A stretch of 4,613 nucleotides of DNA from a virus. Its lineage: Duplodnaviria; Heunggongvirae; Uroviricota; Caudoviricetes. Positions 1 to 4,613 of this stretch are shown here, in pieces. Within the stretch, counting starts at the first letter, position 1. Each line of letters begins with the position of its first letter. Location: IMG/VR virus record IMGVR_UViG_2731957954_000006, positions 1 through 4,613 of that record, one strand, 5' to 3'. A model generated the notes under the pieces. The model ran no database searches, was not told where the DNA came from, and saw only the letters and a program-made list of their open reading frames with translations. The position numbers and the translations under genes were made by a program.

Positions 1-404
1 CCAACAACCAGTTCGGTCTGGGAATTTATCTGTATACCGATGTAGCGTTACCTGACGTCGTGGCGATGACCGGGACTGGTAACCCGTTCCTGATGTCGTT
101 CTTCACCCAGACCACAGACGGCAAACTGAATCTGATGCATCACAAGAAAGCCGGAAACACAAAGTTGGGCGAGTTCGGGAATTACAGTAACGACTGGCAG
201 ACGCTGGAGCTGGTGTTCACCGCCGGCAGTGCCACGGTTACTCCGAAACTGAATGGAGTGGCTGGCCCGGCATTCCAGGTCATAAAAGACAGTCTGACAG
301 TGGGACTAAATGCACTGACGCTGACGGATATTACCAAAAATGCAACGTATGGCGTTGAGATAGAAAGTCTGGTGCTGGAGATAAATGCACCGGCATCATC
401 ATAA
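1..404 (+). CDS. 3' end of a larger late-region ORF (5' end lies outside the window); function not assignable
   Basis: The frame ending at TAA 402-404 is open back to the window edge (hand translation of 3-59 gives NNQFGLGIYLYTDVALPDVV with no stop), so the GTG at 60 in the ORF track is not the real start. The translation is protein-like but I recognise no motif. Its position directly upstream of the holin matches the large ORF that lambdoid prophages carry between Q and S. Confidence 0.6.
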   Translation, partial: NNQFGLGIYLYTDVALPDVVAMTGTGNPFLMSFFTQTTDGKLNLMHHKKAGNTKLGEFGNYSNDWQTLELVFTAGSATVTPKLNGVAGPAFQVIKDSLTVGLNALTLTDITKNATYGVEIESLVLEINAPASS

Positions 405-489
405 AAAGTGAGCCAGTCAAATGGAAGGTATCGTTAAACTCACCGGTAGTGTCAGTGGGTCGTCTGAGATGCCTGCATGAGTTATCAGA

Positions 490-519
490 GCCATCAGTAC
501 TTAACTGGTGGCTTTTTTT
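490..519 (+). terminator. Rho-independent terminator-like hairpin upstream of the holin
   Basis: GCCATCAGT (490-498), loop ACTTA, ACTGGTGGC (504-512): a 9-bp stem with one G-U pair, followed directly by TTTTTTT (513-519). It lies 86 bp after the upstream ORF stop and 36 bp before the holin start. Confidence 0.55.
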
Positions 520-554
520 ATTGTTGTCAGCTTCCGGATAACGGGAGACGGGGT

Positions 555-770
555 ATGTACCAGATGGAAAAAATCACAACAGGTGTGTCATACACCACGT
601 CAGCGGTGGGAACGGGCTACTGGTTCCTGCAGTTGCTGGACAGGGTTTCCCCGTCTCAGTGGGCGGCAATAGGCGTGCTGGGGAGTCTGCTGTTTGGGCT
701 GCTGACATATCTGACTAACCTGTATTTCAAAATCAGAGAGGACCGTCGTAAGGCGGCGCGGGGGGAGTAA
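555..770 (+). CDS. S: Class II holin, phage 21 S21-type pinholin (71 aa), with dual-start motif
   Basis: The translation [71 protein letters not shown] closely resembles S21 as I recall it (two TM segments, charged C-terminal tail [13 protein letters not shown]). ATG 555 and ATG 564 form the M-x-x-M dual start typical of antiholin/holin pairs. SD GGAGA at 544-548. The track ORF starting at 477 would run through the terminator hairpin and is rejected as the start. Confidence 0.9.
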
Positions 771-774
771 AGCG

Positions 775-1416
775 ATGAAGAAAAAATACGAACTGGGTGT
801 TAAAGGGATAAATAATTATCCGGATAAGATTACTGTTACTGTGGCACTGGAAATTGGTGGGTATCCGTCACTGTTGTTGCCAGATGTGGCGATTAGTCTT
901 GACCGTACTGAAGGTGCCACGCTGGAGTTTTACGAAGCTGAGGCGAAAAAGCAGGCGAAGCAGTTTTTCATGGATGTTGCTGCCGGGTTATGTGAAGGGA
1001 ACGAACCGTTGCCGGAAAAGCGCCCCATAATTTTAGAGGCGCAGGATGTGTTGATAACCTACAAAGGAAAGCTACCGGGAAGAATTACTGGTTCTCTGAA
1101 GATGCCGCCGTCAACACTGCGGTCAGAAAAAGAGGCGTCTTGTCTGCAGTCTGAGTACTCCATTACGGTTAAAAGTGCCGGAGAGGAAGGAAATAAACGT
1201 TATTTTATTGCGTCTGCACCTGATAAAGATCAGGAATGGGAGTGTAACCGGCCATCCTTTGTTGTATACGGAGATGGCGGGAAAATAACCATCTCAGAAA
1301 ATGGGAAATTAACACCGCCATCGCACCAGCATAGTGAGGCGCTCATTGAATTTGCCATTGATTACCTGAAGAACAATAAAAAGCAGGGGCTGATGAAGCG
1401 CCATGGGCTGTGTTAA
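775..1416 (+). CDS. Hypothetical 213-aa soluble protein inserted between holin and endolysin (possibly DUF1327/YdfR-like; unverified)
   Basis: ATG 775 lies 4 nt after the holin stop, with SD GGGGAG (762-767) inside the holin 3' end. The ORF is long and uninterrupted with a balanced, hydrophilic composition and no N-terminal signal peptide or TM segment. The same position in E. coli Qin prophage is occupied by ydfR, but I cannot confirm homology from memory. Confidence 0.75.
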   Translation: MKKKYELGVKGINNYPDKITVTVALEIGGYPSLLLPDVAISLDRTEGATLEFYEAEAKKQAKQFFMDVAAGLCEGNEPLPEKRPIILEAQDVLITYKGKLPGRITGSLKMPPSTLRSEKEASCLQSEYSITVKSAGEEGNKRYFIASAPDKDQEWECNRPSFVVYGDGGKITISENGKLTPPSHQHSEALIEFAIDYLKNNKKQGLMKRHGLC

Positions 1417-1584
1417 TGCTCTGGCGATAATGCCGAGAGTCACAGGTGTGAGATGTCCATACGGCTCAGCCTGAATGGATTTTACTGCATCGTGTTCTTG
1501 TGGGAGGAGTAAGAGGCACTCTGATTTTACCCGCTCATTTATGGCTTGCAGGCATAAATCATAATTATGTTGATCGTTATGCAT
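1309..1584 (-). CDS. Candidate small convergent ORF (91 aa) in the holin-endolysin spacer
   Basis: Minus-strand ATG at 1582-1584 is preceded by AGAGGA with a 6-nt spacer (reverse complement of 1585-1597). The first 55 codons or so lie in otherwise non-coding DNA; the last 36 overlap the 3' end of the 213-aa ORF. No recognisable family. Confidence 0.3.
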   Translation of the reverse strand: MHNDQHNYDLCLQAINERVKSECLLLLPQEHDAVKSIQAEPYGHLTPVTLGIIARALTQPMALHQPLLFIVLQVINGKFNERLTMLVRWRC

Positions 1585-1712
1585 GGTTAATCCTCTACTG
1601 AAATTGTCAGATATATTTCAGCCATCAGGAAAAACGCCAGTGTCCTACCGCTGGCGGGCTGAAGATTTAACATATCCAGGGATTCGGAACCGATAAATCC
1701 TGATAAATATCC

Positions 1713-2246
1713 ATGAACACCAAAATCAAATATGGCCTGTCGGCTGCCGTTCTGGCGTTGATTGCCATCGGTGCGCCTGCGCCTGATATTCTCGACCAGT
1801 TTCTGGATGAAAAAGAAGGTAACCACACAACGGCATACCGTGATGGTGCGGGTATCTGGACCATCTGCCGCGGTGCCACAATGGTGGATGGTAAACCTGT
1901 TATTCCGGGCATGAAACTGTCGAAGGAAAAATGCGACCAGGTTAATGCCATTGAACGGGATAAGGCGCTGGCATGGGTGGAGCGCAATATTAAAGTTCCA
2001 CTGACCGAACCACAGAAAGCGGGTATAGCGTCATTCTGTCCCTATAACATTGGCCCCGGTAAGTGTTTCCCGTCGACGTTTTATAAGCGGCTGAATGCTG
2101 GTGACCGCAGGGGAGCGTGTGAGGCGATTCGCTGGTGGATTAAGGACGGTGGCAGAGACTGCCGTATCCGCTCAAATAACTGTTATGGTCAGGTATCCCG
2201 TCGTGACCAGGAGAGCGCGCTGGCGTGCTGGGGAATCGACAGATAA
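1713..2246 (+). CDS. R: SAR endolysin, T4-lysozyme-type muramidase (GH24), 177 aa
   Basis: The N-terminus KYGLSAAVLALIAIGAPAP is a Gly/Ala-rich weakly hydrophobic signal-anchor-release segment. The catalytic triad spacing E-x8-D-x5-T is present (EGNHTTAYRDGAGIWT). Overall layout resembles R21. No convincing SD upstream of ATG 1713. Confidence 0.9.
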   Translation: MNTKIKYGLSAAVLALIAIGAPAPDILDQFLDEKEGNHTTAYRDGAGIWTICRGATMVDGKPVIPGMKLSKEKCDQVNAIERDKALAWVERNIKVPLTEPQKAGIASFCPYNIGPGKCFPSTFYKRLNAGDRRGACEAIRWWIKDGGRDCRIRSNNCYGQVSRRDQESALACWGIDR

Positions 2247-2340
2247 GCAGAATATTTTGCTGAAAAATAAGGTATGGCCACGCGGGCGGATAACACGAAA
2301 TCCTGCGAACTGGCGAAACGTAAGTGAATAAAAGTAAAAA

Positions 2341-2372
2341 CCCCGTTTGTTGGCACCAAGCGGGGTTTTGTG
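2341..2372 (+). terminator. Terminator-like hairpin after the endolysin (possibly bidirectional)
   Basis: CCCCG (2341-2345) pairs with CGGGG (2361-2365), with partial extra pairing TTGG/CCAA inside; followed by TTTTGTGTTT and preceded by AAAAA (2336-2340). Confidence 0.5.
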
Positions 2373-2402
2373 TTTCTGACCTTGAGTAAGGCAAGGGAGA
2401 AC

Positions 2403-2585
2403 ATGGCGAAGTATAAACGAATTCTGTTGAGGTTGACTATGAAAAATGGCCTTGAACTGAAAGCGCCTGTAACTGATGACATCAGCAGAGCACTGGCTTT
2501 TGCCATTAAGTGGGTGGCGGTCGGTGTTGCTGTGTTCCCGATGCTGTATGGGCTGGCAAAACTGGTCATTGCGTTGAAATCGTGA
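2403..2585 (+). CDS. Small membrane protein, 60 aa, basic N-terminus and one C-terminal TM segment
   Basis: Strong SD AAGGGAGA (2391-2398) 4 nt before ATG 2403. Translation [60 protein letters not shown]. The GTG at 2370 used by the track lies inside the hairpin and is rejected as the start. Confidence 0.55.
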
Positions 2586-2599
2586 AGGGAGGATTAAGC

Positions 2600-2731
2600 A
2601 TGTCAGACAAACTCATAACGCTGGCGAAGATCCTCTGTGTAATTGTCGGCATTTCATTTTCACTAATGCTGGTTGCTCTTTTTCTTTCCATGGCCTGGAT
2701 GATGTTGTCTTCGTCGGGGTTGCTGGGGTGA
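2600..2731 (+). CDS. Small membrane protein, 43 aa, single TM segment
   Basis: SD GAAGGGAGGA (2585-2594) overlaps the stop of the preceding small ORF, with ATG at 2600. Translation [43 protein letters not shown]. Its TGA stop (2729-2731) overlaps the Rz GTG start (2728-2730) as GTGA. Confidence 0.5.
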
Positions 2732-3201
2732 ACATAAACCGAATGCTTTCCGCGTTTATCGTTATTCTGCTGGTGGCCTGTGGTGCGCTGTGGATGGCAA
2801 CAGACCATTACCGTGATAACGCGATTACCTACAAAGCGCAGCGCGATAACAAAGCCAGTGAACTGAAGCTGGCGAACGCAACCATTACTGATATGCAGGT
2901 GCGCCAGCGCGATGTTGCTGCGCTCGATGCAAAATACTCGAGGGAATTATCCGATGCGAGAGCTGAAAATGAAACTCTGCGCGCTGATGTTGCCGCTGGT
3001 CGTAAGCGCCTGCGGATCAACGCCACCTGTCCAGGCTCCGTGCGTGAAGCCCCCACCACCTCCGGCGTGGATAATGCAACCGGCCCCCAACTGGCAGACA
3101 CCGTTACACGGGATTATTTCACCCTCAGAGAGCGGCTGATGACGATGCACAAGCAACTGGAAGGGGCACAGGACTATATCCGCACTCAGTGCCTGAAATA
3201 A
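2728..3201 (+). CDS. Rz: Rz inner-membrane spanin (i-spanin)
   Basis: Strong resemblance to lambda Rz as recalled ([45 protein letters not shown] ... [27 protein letters not shown]), with an N-terminal TM segment and coiled-coil body. The start could be GTG 2728 (coupled) or ATG 2743. Confidence 0.9.
2954..3139 (+). CDS. Rz1: Rz1 outer-membrane lipoprotein spanin (o-spanin), embedded in the +1 frame of Rz
   Basis: Translation [61 protein letters not shown] has a lipobox (VSAC), a proline-rich stretch and the conserved [14 protein letters not shown] core of lambda Rz1. It lies wholly inside Rz. Confidence 0.85.
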
Positions 3202-3551
3202 GTTTTGTTGATGCGCCGTATCGTCGCTGTATTCCCTCATTAACAGAGACCGCAGCCCGACAGGGAGACTCCTCTGCGCGAGTGTGCGGGGATAATCAAA
3301 AACGATACACACCGGGGTTTACCGCGTTAACGGAGCGCGGCGTTGTCCCCTCATAGTCGCCTGTCCGGTGCGATGGTGGAAGAAGCCGGATGTTTATCAC
3401 TATTAATTGATGACACAGAAATGGATTCATTGAATTTCAGCACGTTTTTGTATTCGTGTTATTGAACATCTGTTAATTTTACTTTTAACATATTGATAAT
3501 AAAAAGAGCTGTAAATCTTTAGATGAGTCGATTTTGTCCGGGGAAGTTCAA

Positions 3552-3692
3552 ATGGATTTTATGCTGACGGTTTCTGGTGTGGTTATCCTGTCCATTGCTT
3601 ATACTGCAGATAAATATGGCTGCCATTTGTTATCACGTATTGGCGCTTATTGTTCGTTGATGCTGATTTTCTCGTCGCTTTTTTTTGAGTAA
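3552..3692 (+). CDS. Candidate 46-aa hydrophobic small protein in AT-rich island
   Basis: ATG 3552 is preceded by GGGGAAG with a 5-nt spacer. Translation MDFMLTVSGVVILSIAYTADKYGCHLLSRIGAYCSLMLIFSSLFFE. The ORF is followed by a T-run and sits in a locally AT-rich segment (about 3400-3720). Confidence 0.25.
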   Translation: MDFMLTVSGVVILSIAYTADKYGCHLLSRIGAYCSLMLIFSSLFFE

Positions 3693-3824
3693 GTTATATT
3701 AATTATAACAAATAATTTTCTGTGTTATTTTTTCAGGCTATCCCGTCAGAGGGGAAGCCTGTACTGCCGGGGAGCAAATGGAAAACTGATGTGTCCGGTA
3801 ACTGCGTGTTCTGTGAACACCATG

Positions 3825-4010
3825 TTACTTAATTATGTAATTCATACCCGAACTCTCTGTTGACAGCCTTCTTCTGCAGGCTTCAATAACCCACGCTGAA
3901 AAGTTTCCTGAACCTTTCAGATCAAGAGCGATGTTAATTTGTTCAATCATCTGGTTTGGAAATCGGATGTTGCGGGTTGTTGTTCTGCGGGTTCTGTTCT
4001 TTGATGACAT
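3825..4010 (-). CDS. Small YlcI/YnfO-like (DUF3950-type) prophage protein, 61 aa
   Basis: Translation MSSKNRTRRTTTRNIRFPNQMIEQINIALDLKGSGNFSAWVIEACRRRLSTESSGMNYIIK resembles, from memory, the small proteins encoded next to Nu1 homologues in E. coli cryptic prophages (ylcI by nohD, ynfO by nohQ). A ribbon-helix-helix-like fold is possible. Confidence 0.6.
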   Translation of the reverse strand: MSSKNRTRRTTTRNIRFPNQMIEQINIALDLKGSGNFSAWVIEACRRRLSTESSGMNYIIK

Positions 4011-4165
4011 AACGTTTCCCCATATTCAGTGTTGCTGATTTGTATTATCTGAAGTTGCTTTTACGTTAATTTGACGCAGATCAATTAATACGATACCTGC
4101 GTCATAATTGATTATTTCTCGTGGTTTGATGGCGTACACACATGTTGTGATAAACCTTATATAGA

Positions 4166-4180
4166 TGATAATCATTATCA
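4166..4180. promoter_or_regulatory. Perfect 7-1-7 palindrome TGATAATCATTATCA, Fur-box-like
   Basis: Seen directly in the sequence; matches the Fur operator inverted-repeat model tGATAATnATTATCa. Further GATAA-type hexamers lie just upstream (TGTGATAAACC, TAGATGATAAT). It is about 37 bp left of cosN. Confidence 0.3.
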
Positions 4181-4204
4181 TTTCGTGGGTCCTTTCCGGC
4201 GATC

Positions 4205-4404
4205 CGACCGGTTACGGGGCGGCGACCTCGCGGTTTTTCACTATTTATGAAAATTTTTCAGGGAAAATCGTGTCGGTACTTCTCGAATATAACTTTTTGT
4301 TTTTTTTAATATTACATCCGTAAAGGTCCGACATGAAAGTGTCCGAAAATGCCTTTTTCTGGCGTTTTCATGTCGGGCCTTGTATTTGATAATGGGTTGT
4401 TTTC
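4205..4404 (+). other. cos: Lambda-type cohesive end site (cosN with flanking cosB)
   Basis: CGGTTACG|GGGCGGCGACCT|CGCGG matches the lambda cos junction, with the 12-nt cohesive end GGGCGGCGACCT at 4217-4228. The downstream CACTATTTATGAAAATTTTTCAGG matches the lambda cosB proximal region. The nu1 start follows at 4405. Confidence 0.85.
4324..4380. promoter_or_regulatory. Inverted repeat in cosB (candidate terminase small-subunit binding sites or RNA hairpin)
   Basis: AGGTCCGACATGAAA (4324-4338) and TTTCATGTCGGGCCT (4366-4380) are reverse complements at 14 of 15 positions, separated by 27 nt, about 25 bp upstream of the nu1 start. Confidence 0.35.
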
Positions 4405-4613
4405 ATGAAGGTTAATAAAAAGAGGCTTGCCGAAATTTTCAACGTGGACCCGCGGACGATTGAACGCTGGCAGTCTCAGGGACTCCCTTGCGCCTCCAAA
4501 GGTAGTAAGGGCATTGAATCTGTATTTGATACTGCCATGGCAATTCAGTGGTATGCGCAGAGGGAAACTGATATCGAAAACGAAAAGCTCCGCAAAGAAC
4601 TGGACGATTTGCG
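4405..4613 (+). CDS. nu1: Terminase small subunit Nu1 (N-terminal part; continues beyond window)
   Basis: Translation [69 protein letters not shown] aligns by eye with lambda Nu1 (MEVNKKQLADIFGASIRTIQNWQEQGMP ... IENEKLRREVEELR), including the winged-HTH region. Absent from the ORF track because it runs off the window end. Confidence 0.9.

Follow-up and report, generated by a model that had tools for sequence, protein, structure and literature searches.

A probable RNA element with covarying helices and an AT-rich moron in the interval between Rz and cos of a lambdoid Escherichia coli prophage

The 4,613-nucleotide (nt) stretch analyzed in this study (positions 1 to 4,613 of IMG/VR record IMGVR_UViG_2731957954_000006; hereafter, the window) is the late region of a lambdoid Escherichia coli prophage, and its positions 3150-3900 are 99.7% identical to the prophage of E. 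coli O104:H4 2011C-3493 and to those of many other strains. Between the spanin gene Rz and the YlcI/YnfO gene lies the interval 3202-3824, which up to approximately position 3800 probably consists of three separate units in series, i.e., an empty bor site, a conserved structured RNA, and an AT-rich moron. As judged from sequence comparison, the second unit (3211-3391; hereafter, the element) is a discrete conserved non-coding structured RNA that does not belong to any described family. The initial annotation had described the interval as the bor position occupied by a different cargo, with a GC-rich remnant (a decayed gene or a structured RNA) followed by an AT-rich island with a 46-codon open reading frame (ORF). 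The different cargo, the small hydrophobic ORF, and the possible structured RNA were upheld, whereas the bor position and the term "remnant" were not. The three units are as follows.

3202-3210, no strand assigned: empty bor slot, 9 bp that join the Rz stop codon to the conserved element, as seen by comparison with bor-bearing relatives
3211-3391, plus strand: conserved structured RNA element of lambdoid late operons, from conservation, covariation, G-U asymmetry, and the absence of a conserved ORF
3392-3800, no strand assigned: AT-rich moron cassette in the second cargo slot, with a GC fraction of 0.29-0.39 and a drop in identity between alleles from 97-99% to ~76% at ~3395

The blocks of the window that align with lambda are Rz (2806-3179), 3212-3327, and 3876-4216 (the ynfO-like region and cos), with nothing between them. 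The second block corresponds to lambda 46868-46981 (78.6% identity), on the right of bor (46459-46752), and the third corresponds to lambda 48169-48502. In the ninety-odd IMG/VR prophage loci with the 46-codon ORF, homology breakpoints recur at 3205/3211, ~3391, 4010, and just past cos. Shiga toxin (Stx) phages share the sequence from 3151 to ~3390 and diverge beyond it, and a rare allele, SHP24, is 97-99% identical to the window until ~3395 and only ~76% identical from there to ~3830. Two hypervariable cargo slots, one on each side of a conserved ~180-bp block, are apparent from these comparisons. Slot 1, from the Rz stop codon to 3211, holds bor in lambda, the 933W-like phage ST2-8624, and K-12 DLP12, and a 74-residue ORF or unrelated sequence in other relatives (15 left-flank types). 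Slot 2, on the right of 3391, holds the AT-rich island in the window and HnrS, lipoprotein genes, HNH genes, or cos in other phages. The island had therefore been assigned to the wrong place: in lambda, 933W-like phages, and K-12 DLP12, bor lies between Rz and the element, and the island lies on the right of the element.

The absence of bor itself was confirmed. The best tblastn match of lambda Bor to the window has an E value of 0.64, with none within 3202-3824, and no ORF of the size of Bor (~97 amino acids) is found inside this interval. A remnant of bor was rejected by tblastn, blastn, and tblastx against lambda, and a Pfam scan of the four plus-strand ORFs of 3189-3832 gave no match. The transition from GC-rich to AT-rich sequence is also present as described, with GC fractions in 150-nt windows of 0.567-0.593 over 3201-3400 and 0.293-0.393 over 3351-3750; most of the window has a GC fraction of ~0.44-0.56, and the first part is only mildly GC-rich, since the 3′ half of Rz reaches 0.62. 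In relatives, the 74-residue ORF of slot 1 (MKKLRVTVEPFQGTIPFRILQRGRVLVEG...) has a good Shine-Dalgarno (SD) sequence and is present in 37 of the 178 sampled left flanks (e.g., L011, L002, and L012), and a tandem repeat of variable copy number, AATGCCGCTA, is located downstream of it.

A blastn search with 3205-3395 retrieved 398 phage records with 75-100% identity and sharp common ends at ~3211/3212 and 3390/3391, including lambda-like phages, VT1-Sakai, VT2-Sakai, 933W-like phages, mEp460, and Salmonella phage ES18. The element occupies 46868 to ~47035 in lambda, on the right of bor. It is at least partly matched in 4145 of 5426 complete E. coli genomes, and at least 80% of it is present in 3095; there are up to 11 copies per genome, mostly unannotated. 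In DLP12 of K-12 MG1655, it is located in the borD-ybcV spacer (NC_000913.3, 579008-579191, plus strand; L330; 139 bits, E = 6e-40). Its left flanks are of at least 15 unrelated kinds and its right flanks of 15 types, and the sequence downstream is either a small terminase gene at a distance of 36-300 nt or a moron (a lipoprotein gene, an HNH gene, HnrS, or the island of the window). By sequence, the adjoining small terminases are of at least five types that appear unrelated (H0025-like, 933W-like, P27-like, P22 gp3-like, and Nu1), of which three were identified from record annotation and the others, including the P27-like and P22 gp3-like types, were read from the sequence by us. The element thus appears to be a fixed landmark of the lysis/packaging junction in lambdoid phages, regardless of the terminase type.

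Known RNA families did not account for the element. Rfam 15 gave no match with an E value of 1 or lower in 3200-3400 in a scan of the whole window, and a scan of 3195-3410 with lax filters gave only two eukaryotic microRNA models (E = 0.47 and 7.1), which are far below the gathering thresholds. ARAGORN detected no tRNA or tmRNA, and searches of the literature turned up neither the element nor WP_000347013, the product of the 46-codon ORF. The Pas small RNAs (sRNAs), STnc100, and AgvB map near pR′ and the esterase gene, and EcOnc08, EcOnc21, and EcOnc42 map beside stx1B and the esterase gene; all were rejected as candidates for the element. The consensus structure comprises seven helices, all on the plus strand.

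3218-3224/3302-3308, plus strand: P1, consensus helix of the element
3230-3240/3284-3294, plus strand: P2, consensus helix of the element
3251-3255/3274-3278, plus strand: P3, consensus helix of the element
3256-3258/3263-3265, plus strand: P3a, consensus helix of the element
3314-3317/3347-3350, plus strand: P4, consensus helix of the element
3322-3326/3336-3340, plus strand: P5, consensus helix of the element
3363-3368/3386-3391, plus strand: P6, consensus helix with an invariant GGAAGAA in the loop

The structure was written by hand, partly after RNAalifold, and was then scored by counting. In P5, both sides change together from CCGCG/CGCGG to GCAGC/GCTGG or CTGTG/CGCAG, and in P6 from CCGG/CCGG to CCTG/CAGG or TCGA/TCGA. 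In a structure-agnostic MAFFT alignment of 51 representatives (alignment A2), 95.6% of the cells are paired and double-sided changes are found in 17 pairs, compared with 6.0 ± 1.8 in column shuffles and 5-10 when the partners are slid by 1-3 columns. A covariance model from A2 recovered 102 copies, of which 76 are distinct. Among these 76 sequences, 95.9% of the cells are paired and 22 of the 41 pairs are compensatory; the shuffled controls contain 13.7 ± 1.6 compensatory pairs, and those with slid partners contain 4-14, with 35-62% of the cells paired. The structure was further compared with a null that keeps the phylogeny, i.e., all other column pairs of the alignment with complementary consensus bases (5000 resamples). 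Cells that depart from the consensus are still paired in 77% of cases in the structure versus 31 ± 5% in the null (maximum of 49% in 5000 resamples), and cells changed on both sides are still paired in 92% versus 37%. In A2, the same test gave 72% versus 34.5 ± 5% and 81% versus 39%, respectively. Pairs are thus kept by compensatory substitution beyond the phylogenetic background, as is characteristic of a conserved structured non-coding RNA. In two lineages, a 10-nt deletion takes out just the hairpin tip of P3a.

The pairing is also asymmetric between the strands. On the plus strand, there are 310 G-U cells and 45 A-C cells (7:1), and the proportion of paired cells is 95.9% when the element is read as the plus strand and 87.2% when it is read as the minus strand. 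The excess of G-U over A-C indicates that the RNA reads on the plus strand, which is the sense of the late operon; this asymmetry and the lack of a conserved reading frame (see below) are both features expected of a non-coding RNA.

Several points weigh against the structured RNA. The loci were collected by sequence patterns and are a biased sample, and a further alignment (A3) was aligned to the model itself. Because the sequences form a few recombining lineages, apparent compensation is also common among isolated column pairs that do not belong to the structure. The covariation support consequently holds for the helices and for the whole set and not for single pairs, and a pairwise-covariation scan for pseudoknots or extra helices was uninformative owing to the many spurious pairs from this lineage structure. 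The minimum free energy (MFE) of the single sequence is no better than that of shuffles (z = −0.33 and +0.46 on the plus and minus strands, respectively), and the consensus fold lies a median of 7 kcal/mol above the MFE. The description of the GC-rich part as structure-prone is accordingly not borne out by the thermodynamics of the single sequence (z = −0.33), but it agrees with the covariation, and the structured RNA is the option for this part that the covariation data support.

The other option, a decayed gene, finds no conserved frame. Only 18 of the 76 distinct variants are open in any plus-strand frame across the core, and 19 have core lengths that are not multiples of 3, with indels of 1, 10, and 17 nt. 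These counts also make it highly improbable that the element encodes a small protein, for which the candidate is ORF 3189-3356, called orf48 in VT2-Sakai. This ORF matches phrog_6954 ("Rz-like spanin") at 1.4e-16, and coding sequences are annotated over the element in several phage records; however, the annotated coding sequences have differing starts and ends, Pfam and NCBIfam gave no match for the element-overlapping ORF, and the real spanins, Rz and Rz1, are located upstream. Most likely, phrog_6954 is a grouping of spurious ORF calls over conserved non-coding sequence.

If the 181-bp element instead acted as DNA, it could promote the exchange of modules as a recombination linker, or it could be an accessory site for packaging or termination close to cos or pac. 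Its sharp common boundaries and the swapping of flanks on both sides (15 left and 15 right types) would fit this reading, as would its location in some phages, where it ends ~15 nt before a cosQ-like sequence and ~70 nt before cosN. We nevertheless regard such a role as improbable: neither a linker nor a protein-binding DNA site predicts seven helices kept by compensatory changes, and a DNA-level role does not predict a 7:1 excess of G-U over A-C on one strand. In addition, the element is ~0.8-1.8 kb from cos in lambda, K-12 DLP12, and the window, and thus outside the cos region, which is ~200 bp in size.

Some further arrangements of the element were observed. The cos phages with the short distances given above have L170- and L167-type right flanks, in which the cosQ-like sequence is ATGATAACCATTATCA and neither ynfO nor morons are found between the element and cos; this may be the ancestral arrangement. 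The sequence GATAAAGGTATTCAAGCCTGACACAT stands directly 5′ of the element in otherwise unrelated left flanks (L017, L055, L139, L169, L179, and L185) and is absent from the window; it may be a 5′ extension of the element motif in those lineages. In the locus L093, a deletion joins an esterase-like ORF to the middle of the element (~1167 onward, corresponding to window 3319 onward), and the whole lysis cassette is gone, which is decay in a defective prophage. A pattern scan of genome contigs returned mostly lambda control-DNA contamination and chance matches, and the useful loci came only from Escherichia and Raoultella. Many "genomes" of unrelated bacteria hold 3.5-kb or 48-kb contigs that match the right end of lambda (L105, L112, L117, L132, L137, L142, L144, L158, and others), which we take to be contamination of public assemblies by lambda control DNA from sequencing spike-ins.

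The element leaves no room for a promoter of its own, given that the conserved sequence starts 7 nt upstream of P1 and that at least 15 unrelated kinds of sequence are found on its left. It must accordingly belong to a larger RNA, presumably the late transcript. Transcription as a segment of the pR′-driven late RNA is suggested by its location in the late operon, where S, R, Rz, and Nu1 are likewise encoded on the plus strand. In the predicted architecture, P1 and P2 form a long stem in two parts that closes a small hairpin domain, P4 and P5 form another, nested hairpin domain, and P6 is a terminal hairpin with an invariant purine loop. We tentatively favor a role in cis, in which the element would act on the polycistronic late mRNA at a point of processing, stability, or translational control between the lysis and packaging messages. 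The near-continuous P1/P2 duplex of roughly 20 bp would suit RNase III, and the invariant single-stranded tracts, i.e., AUUAAC, AUCAAAAA, and the GGAAGAA of the P6 loop, suggest specific recognition. Two further points stand against the structured RNA: no conserved expression platform follows the element, and a role as a simple terminase-gene leader is precluded by the distance of more than 1 kb that separates the element from cos and Nu1 in lambda and the window.

Cis-acting structures in phage polycistronic transcripts include the RNase III sites of T7 and the put antiterminator RNAs of HK022, which are ~50-60 nt (the T7 R site) and ~70 nt in size, respectively. The element is like them in kind only, as a conserved sense-strand structure in a long transcript at a boundary between gene blocks. 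The P1/P2 duplex, of ~18-20 bp with an internal loop, may be analogous to those of RNase III sites, whereas the element as a whole, with ~180 nt, three domains, and several invariant single-stranded tracts, is much larger than the T7 R site or put and has no sequence or Rfam similarity to them. A broader proposal, which we put forward as rather speculative, is that the element is an unrecognized class of functional RNA common to lambda, the Stx phages, and most E. coli prophages (a riboregulator, a processing module, or a ribozyme-like module) for the hand-over from lysis to packaging on the late transcript, which may also communicate with adjoining small regulatory cargo such as HnrS, and for which the 46-residue peptide would be one of several interchangeable payloads.

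HnrS occupies the slot on the right of the element in the Sakai prophage Sp10. The entries EcOnc10-12 in Table S2 of PMC4104026 are Hfq peaks in Sakai Sp12, Sp10, and Sp9, and they are now named HnrS, a 66-nt prophage sRNA that represses hha (PMC13502914). On NC_002695.2, the Sp10 peak at first seemed to lie inside the element on the minus strand. The coordinate shift from version 1 to version 2 was calibrated with AgvB, for which the Rfam hit in version 2 was compared with the coordinates in the table, and was about +128 to +146 nt. After this shift, the Sp10 peak falls on a perfect minus-strand terminator, ACTGCTGTGACTCCAACACGGCAGTTTTTTT, directly right of the element, with a CUUCU-containing seed upstream of the terminator. 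HnrS in Sp10 is therefore cargo of slot 2, and its location inside the element was rejected. Its site is at ~3445-3510 on the minus strand of L324 (Sakai Sp10), with the terminator abutting the end of the element, and it also occurs in the right flanks of L174 and L235. In the window, a blastn-short search with the Sp10 sequence gave only chance words of 8-9 nt.

The adjacency of HnrS bears on whether the element is, or releases, a trans-acting RNA such as a processed sRNA or a sponge, e.g., one that pairs with HnrS through its loop GGUGGAAGA or binds Hfq. Nine base pairs, one of them G-U, can form between the P6 loop 5′-GGUGGAAGA-3′ and the reconstructed seed of HnrS, 5′-UCUUCUACC-3′, the HnrS gene directly adjoins the element in Sp10, and the energy of the whole-molecule duplex between the element and HnrS is better than that of 97.8% of shuffles. 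The P6 loop also has AAG repeats of the A-R-N type, which is bound by Hfq (PMC4104026). However, the complementarity between the loop and the seed is short and was found post hoc, which makes it a weak signal. The element is far commoner than HnrS, the terminator of which is found in only 2 of 179 right flanks, and the HnrS coordinates depend on the inferred shift of ~128 bp between genome versions. Among the entries EcOnc01-33 of the Sakai table, no plus-strand Hfq peak is located at the position of the element. A trans-acting RNA therefore seems improbable to us, and the cis role in the late mRNA remains the reading that we favor for the element.

The second main constituent of the interval is the AT-rich island, the features of which are given below.

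3483-3506, plus strand: promoter-like block TTTTAACATATTGATAATAAAAAG, with the extended −10-like TGATAATAA at 3494-3502; identical in three alleles, the flanks of which differ by ~24%
3540-3546, plus strand: SD-like GGGGAAG, 5 nt upstream of the ATG
3552-3692, plus strand: 46-codon ORF MDFMLTVSGVVILSIAYTADKYGCHLLSRIGAYCSLMLIFSSLFFE with an ATG start (RefSeq WP_000347013.1, "hypothetical protein")

The island is found in 734 of the 5426 E. coli genomes, usually as a single copy, compared with 4145 for the element, and in only 2 of 50,697 phage records. Its carriers include O157:H7, O55:H7, O104:H4, O103:H2, O45:H2, and O111 strains. In the locus L326, the right end of the island is at ~3800 and is followed by a different terminase; in prophages of this P0019 type, which have a different terminase and no ynfO, the element and the island (window 3212-3800) travel together. 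The flanks of the island, i.e., the element on one side and ynfO and cos on the other, are common to lambda and Stx phages, and the island is not; its GC fraction is 0.29-0.39 versus about 0.44-0.56 for most of the window. The AT-rich part is thus a compositionally distinct insertion with a conserved small hydrophobic ORF in a mosaic interval, as had been proposed. It appears to behave as a classical moron, like bor or the cargo genes of Qin and DLP12, yet it is unrelated to them. The moron would have been inserted in the right-hand slot and would carry its own extended −10-like promoter block, SD sequence, and 46-codon gene, and the peptide could be produced when late transcription reads through and, probably, also in the prophage state. 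An extended −10 promoter would fit the 24-nt block that contains TGATAATAA. A scan for promoter consensus sequences detected no plus-strand site at 3483-3506 and only an overlapping minus-strand site (3515-3487), at chance frequency.

The 46-codon ORF and its SD sequence (3552-3692 and 3540-3546) were found as described, whereas the reported trailing T-run is a T8 (3679-3686) inside the last codons of the ORF, which is T6, T7, or T9 in relatives. Three alleles were found, i.e., the window type, the P0019 type (91% identical, 152 contigs), and the SHP24 type (71% protein identity), and all three keep the start, frame, and stop, apart from slippage of the T-run. The sequence CGGGGAA is kept in all three, while the neighboring bases vary. 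Between the window and SHP24, the ratio of nonsynonymous to synonymous substitution rates (dN/dS) is 0.31 in frame versus 0.55-0.70 in the other frames, and the replacements are mostly conservative (e.g., V/I, S/A, and M/I). Permutation of the observed substitutions, counting cases that lacked a stop and equaled or exceeded the observed BLOSUM score, gave p = 0.002 for the pair of the P0019 type (L326) and SHP24. The major allele contains four synonymous changes and one non-synonymous change in intact copies, another non-synonymous change in a frameshifted copy, and a change of ATG to GTG in three loci. The divergence of the ORF region is 17.8%, compared with 24.4% in its 5′ flank. The peptide has a grand average of hydropathy of 1.1 in the window and 1.1-1.5 across the alleles, with a conserved polar turn, ADKYG(C/Y)(H/P)LLSR, and a two-helix hydrophobic pattern in all alleles. 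AlphaFold2 gave helices at residues 2-22 and 24-45 (predicted local distance difference test score of 76), and the peptide is accordingly predicted to be a two-helix hydrophobic hairpin in the membrane.

The coding evidence is moderate, and the 46-codon ORF likely encodes a real small membrane protein, with lysogenic conversion, exclusion, and modulation of lysis as candidate roles. It is less probable that the ORF is incidental and untranslated and that the island is non-coding cargo, e.g., a regulatory region, an unrecognized sRNA, or H-NS-bound filler. Several of the observations weigh against coding and would suit such cargo. An ATG ORF of at least 46 codons is held by 43.5% of dinucleotide shuffles of 3392-3824, so that the length alone is no evidence of coding. 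The probability that no stop arises after 24 random substitutions is ~0.5, and the permutation test gave only p = 0.06 for the window and SHP24. The window differs from the P0019 type by two synonymous and four non-synonymous changes. Slippage in the T-run makes the C terminus unstable: at least 14 of 88 loci are frameshifted there, and in one copy the frameshift is internal. No canonical intrinsic terminator was found after the ORF. Pfam, NCBIfam, PHROGs, PADLOC, a search of 5.8 billion protein sequences, and a HMMER search of 1.8 billion representatives gave no family and no homologue beyond near-identical E. coli copies. On the other hand, an untranslated ORF is disfavored by the low dN/dS with conservative replacements, the p value of 0.002 for L326 and SHP24, the 4-to-1 excess of synonymous changes among intact copies of the major allele, the conserved SD sequence and start codon, the lower divergence relative to the 5′ flank, and the retention of the two-helix pattern in all alleles.

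The likeness to type I toxin-antitoxin loci noted in the initial annotation was not substantiated. In such a locus, the 46-residue peptide would be a membrane toxin kept repressed by an sRNA in antisense or divergent orientation, and the small hydrophobic peptide in an AT-rich island and the minus-strand promoter-like site (3515-3487), back to back with the candidate plus-strand promoter, are in agreement with it. We consider this very improbable, however, for the following reasons. Three promoter-like matches were found, the one at 3515-3487 among them, versus 3.2 expected by chance; the −35 of this site is not conserved in the SHP24 allele, and an RNA starting from it would neither overlap an mRNA starting near 3508 nor end at a terminator. 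No match to Hok, Ldr, TisB, Ibs, ShoB, Zor, or DinQ was found in Pfam or NCBIfam, no antitoxin RNA was found in Rfam, and neither PHROG nor PADLOC gave a type I toxin match for the peptide, which has no relative outside E. coli among the 1.8 billion representatives. The type I toxins (Hok, Ldr, TisB, Ibs, ShoB, ZorO, and DinQ) are, like the peptide, short, hydrophobic, and located in horizontally acquired DNA, but they usually have a single transmembrane segment and are cationic, whereas two helices are predicted for the peptide, which is slightly acidic to neutral, with a net charge of −1 in the window and −1 to +1 among the alleles; the island also lacks a long structured 5′ untranslated region.

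The small membrane protein suggested by the coding evidence can be compared with the cargo of related phages. Like the island, bor of lambda is cargo in the non-essential stretch between Rz and cos, is compositionally distinct and self-contained, and is absent from close relatives. It differs in lying left of the element on the minus strand and in encoding a 97-residue lipoprotein (lysogenic conversion to serum resistance), whereas the island lies right of the element and its plus-strand ORF encodes a 46-residue non-lipoprotein with a predicted hairpin. In the cryptic prophages of K-12, the cargo between Rz and ynfO/ylcI comprises cspI, ynfQ, ynfR, ynfN, gnsB, and ydfO in Qin and borD, ybcV, and ybcW in DLP12. 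These occupy the same backbone position as in the window, with the YlcI/YnfO gene and nohA/nohD on the right, and include several very small genes; however, they are similar to the 46-codon ORF island in neither DNA nor protein. Qin lacks the RNA element, whereas DLP12 has it between borD and ybcV. HnrS, which in Sakai Sp10 fills the same slot directly 3′ of the element, is a further small regulatory cargo at this junction, but it is a minus-strand sRNA of 66 nt with an intrinsic terminator, whereas the cargo of the window is a plus-strand ORF.

The ORF part of the interval is ordinary, and the RNA element is the unexpected result. Despite the intense study of lambda and Stx phages, neither lambda 46.9-47.0 kb nor the borD-ybcV spacer of K-12 has an annotated function in these records. 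A covarying RNA structure that is at least partly present in about three quarters of complete E. coli genomes sits where virulence-related cargo (bor and HnrS) docks. If confirmed, the structure would extend the model of lambdoid late gene expression by a new cis element and would serve as a precise landmark for moron insertion sites. The 46-residue peptide, carried by O157:H7, O104:H4, and other pathogenic lineages, is a concrete candidate small membrane protein.

The order of the genes in the window is the 3′ end of a SASA/NanS-p esterase gene, a class II holin gene, a YdfR/DUF1327 ORF, the lysozyme gene (1713-2246), two small hydrophobic ORFs, and Rz/Rz1 (2743-3201). The interval 3202-3824 is followed by the minus-strand YlcI/YnfO gene (3825-4010), cosN (4217-4230), and Nu1 from 4405. 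The backbone features on the two sides of the interval are as follows.

2743-3201, plus strand: Rz spanin gene with Rz1 embedded, the left backbone boundary (Pfam Phage_lysis, 7e-47)
3825-4010, minus strand: YlcI/YnfO (DUF3950) gene, the right backbone boundary before cos (Pfam DUF3950, 9e-19; NCBIfam YlcI_YnfO_N)
4217-4230: cosN GGGCGGCGACCTCG, right of the YlcI/YnfO gene

Rz is 84.5% identical to lambda Rz and is annotated by RefSeq as "lysis protein" in the 99.7% identical O104:H4 prophage, and the YlcI/YnfO region is 87% identical to lambda 48169-48502. At 2337-2366, in the space that separates the lysozyme gene from the small ORF after it, there is a strong bidirectional terminator-like hairpin, AAAAACCCCGTTTGTTGGCACCAAGCGGGGTTTT, where the minus strand also has a sub-threshold match to the Rfam "rimP leader" (2327-2401; 25.6 bits, E = 0.48); the hairpin could be the terminator of a minus-strand sRNA or an insulator of the lysis genes. 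The two small hydrophobic ORFs between the endolysin gene and Rz, 2403-2585 (60 residues) and 2600-2731 (43 residues), both on the plus strand, belong to phrog_1115 and phrog_4906 (function unknown), respectively, and both are "hypothetical" in RefSeq. Small membrane-peptide genes seem to accumulate across the whole lysis region. The plus-strand DUF1327/YdfR ORF (775-1416) has 213 residues, approximately twice the usual length, and its O104:H4 copy is a truncated pseudogene according to RefSeq. Its 3′ end is overlapped by an antisense ORF of 91 residues on the minus strand (1309-1584, phrog_1853), which is a RefSeq-annotated gene.

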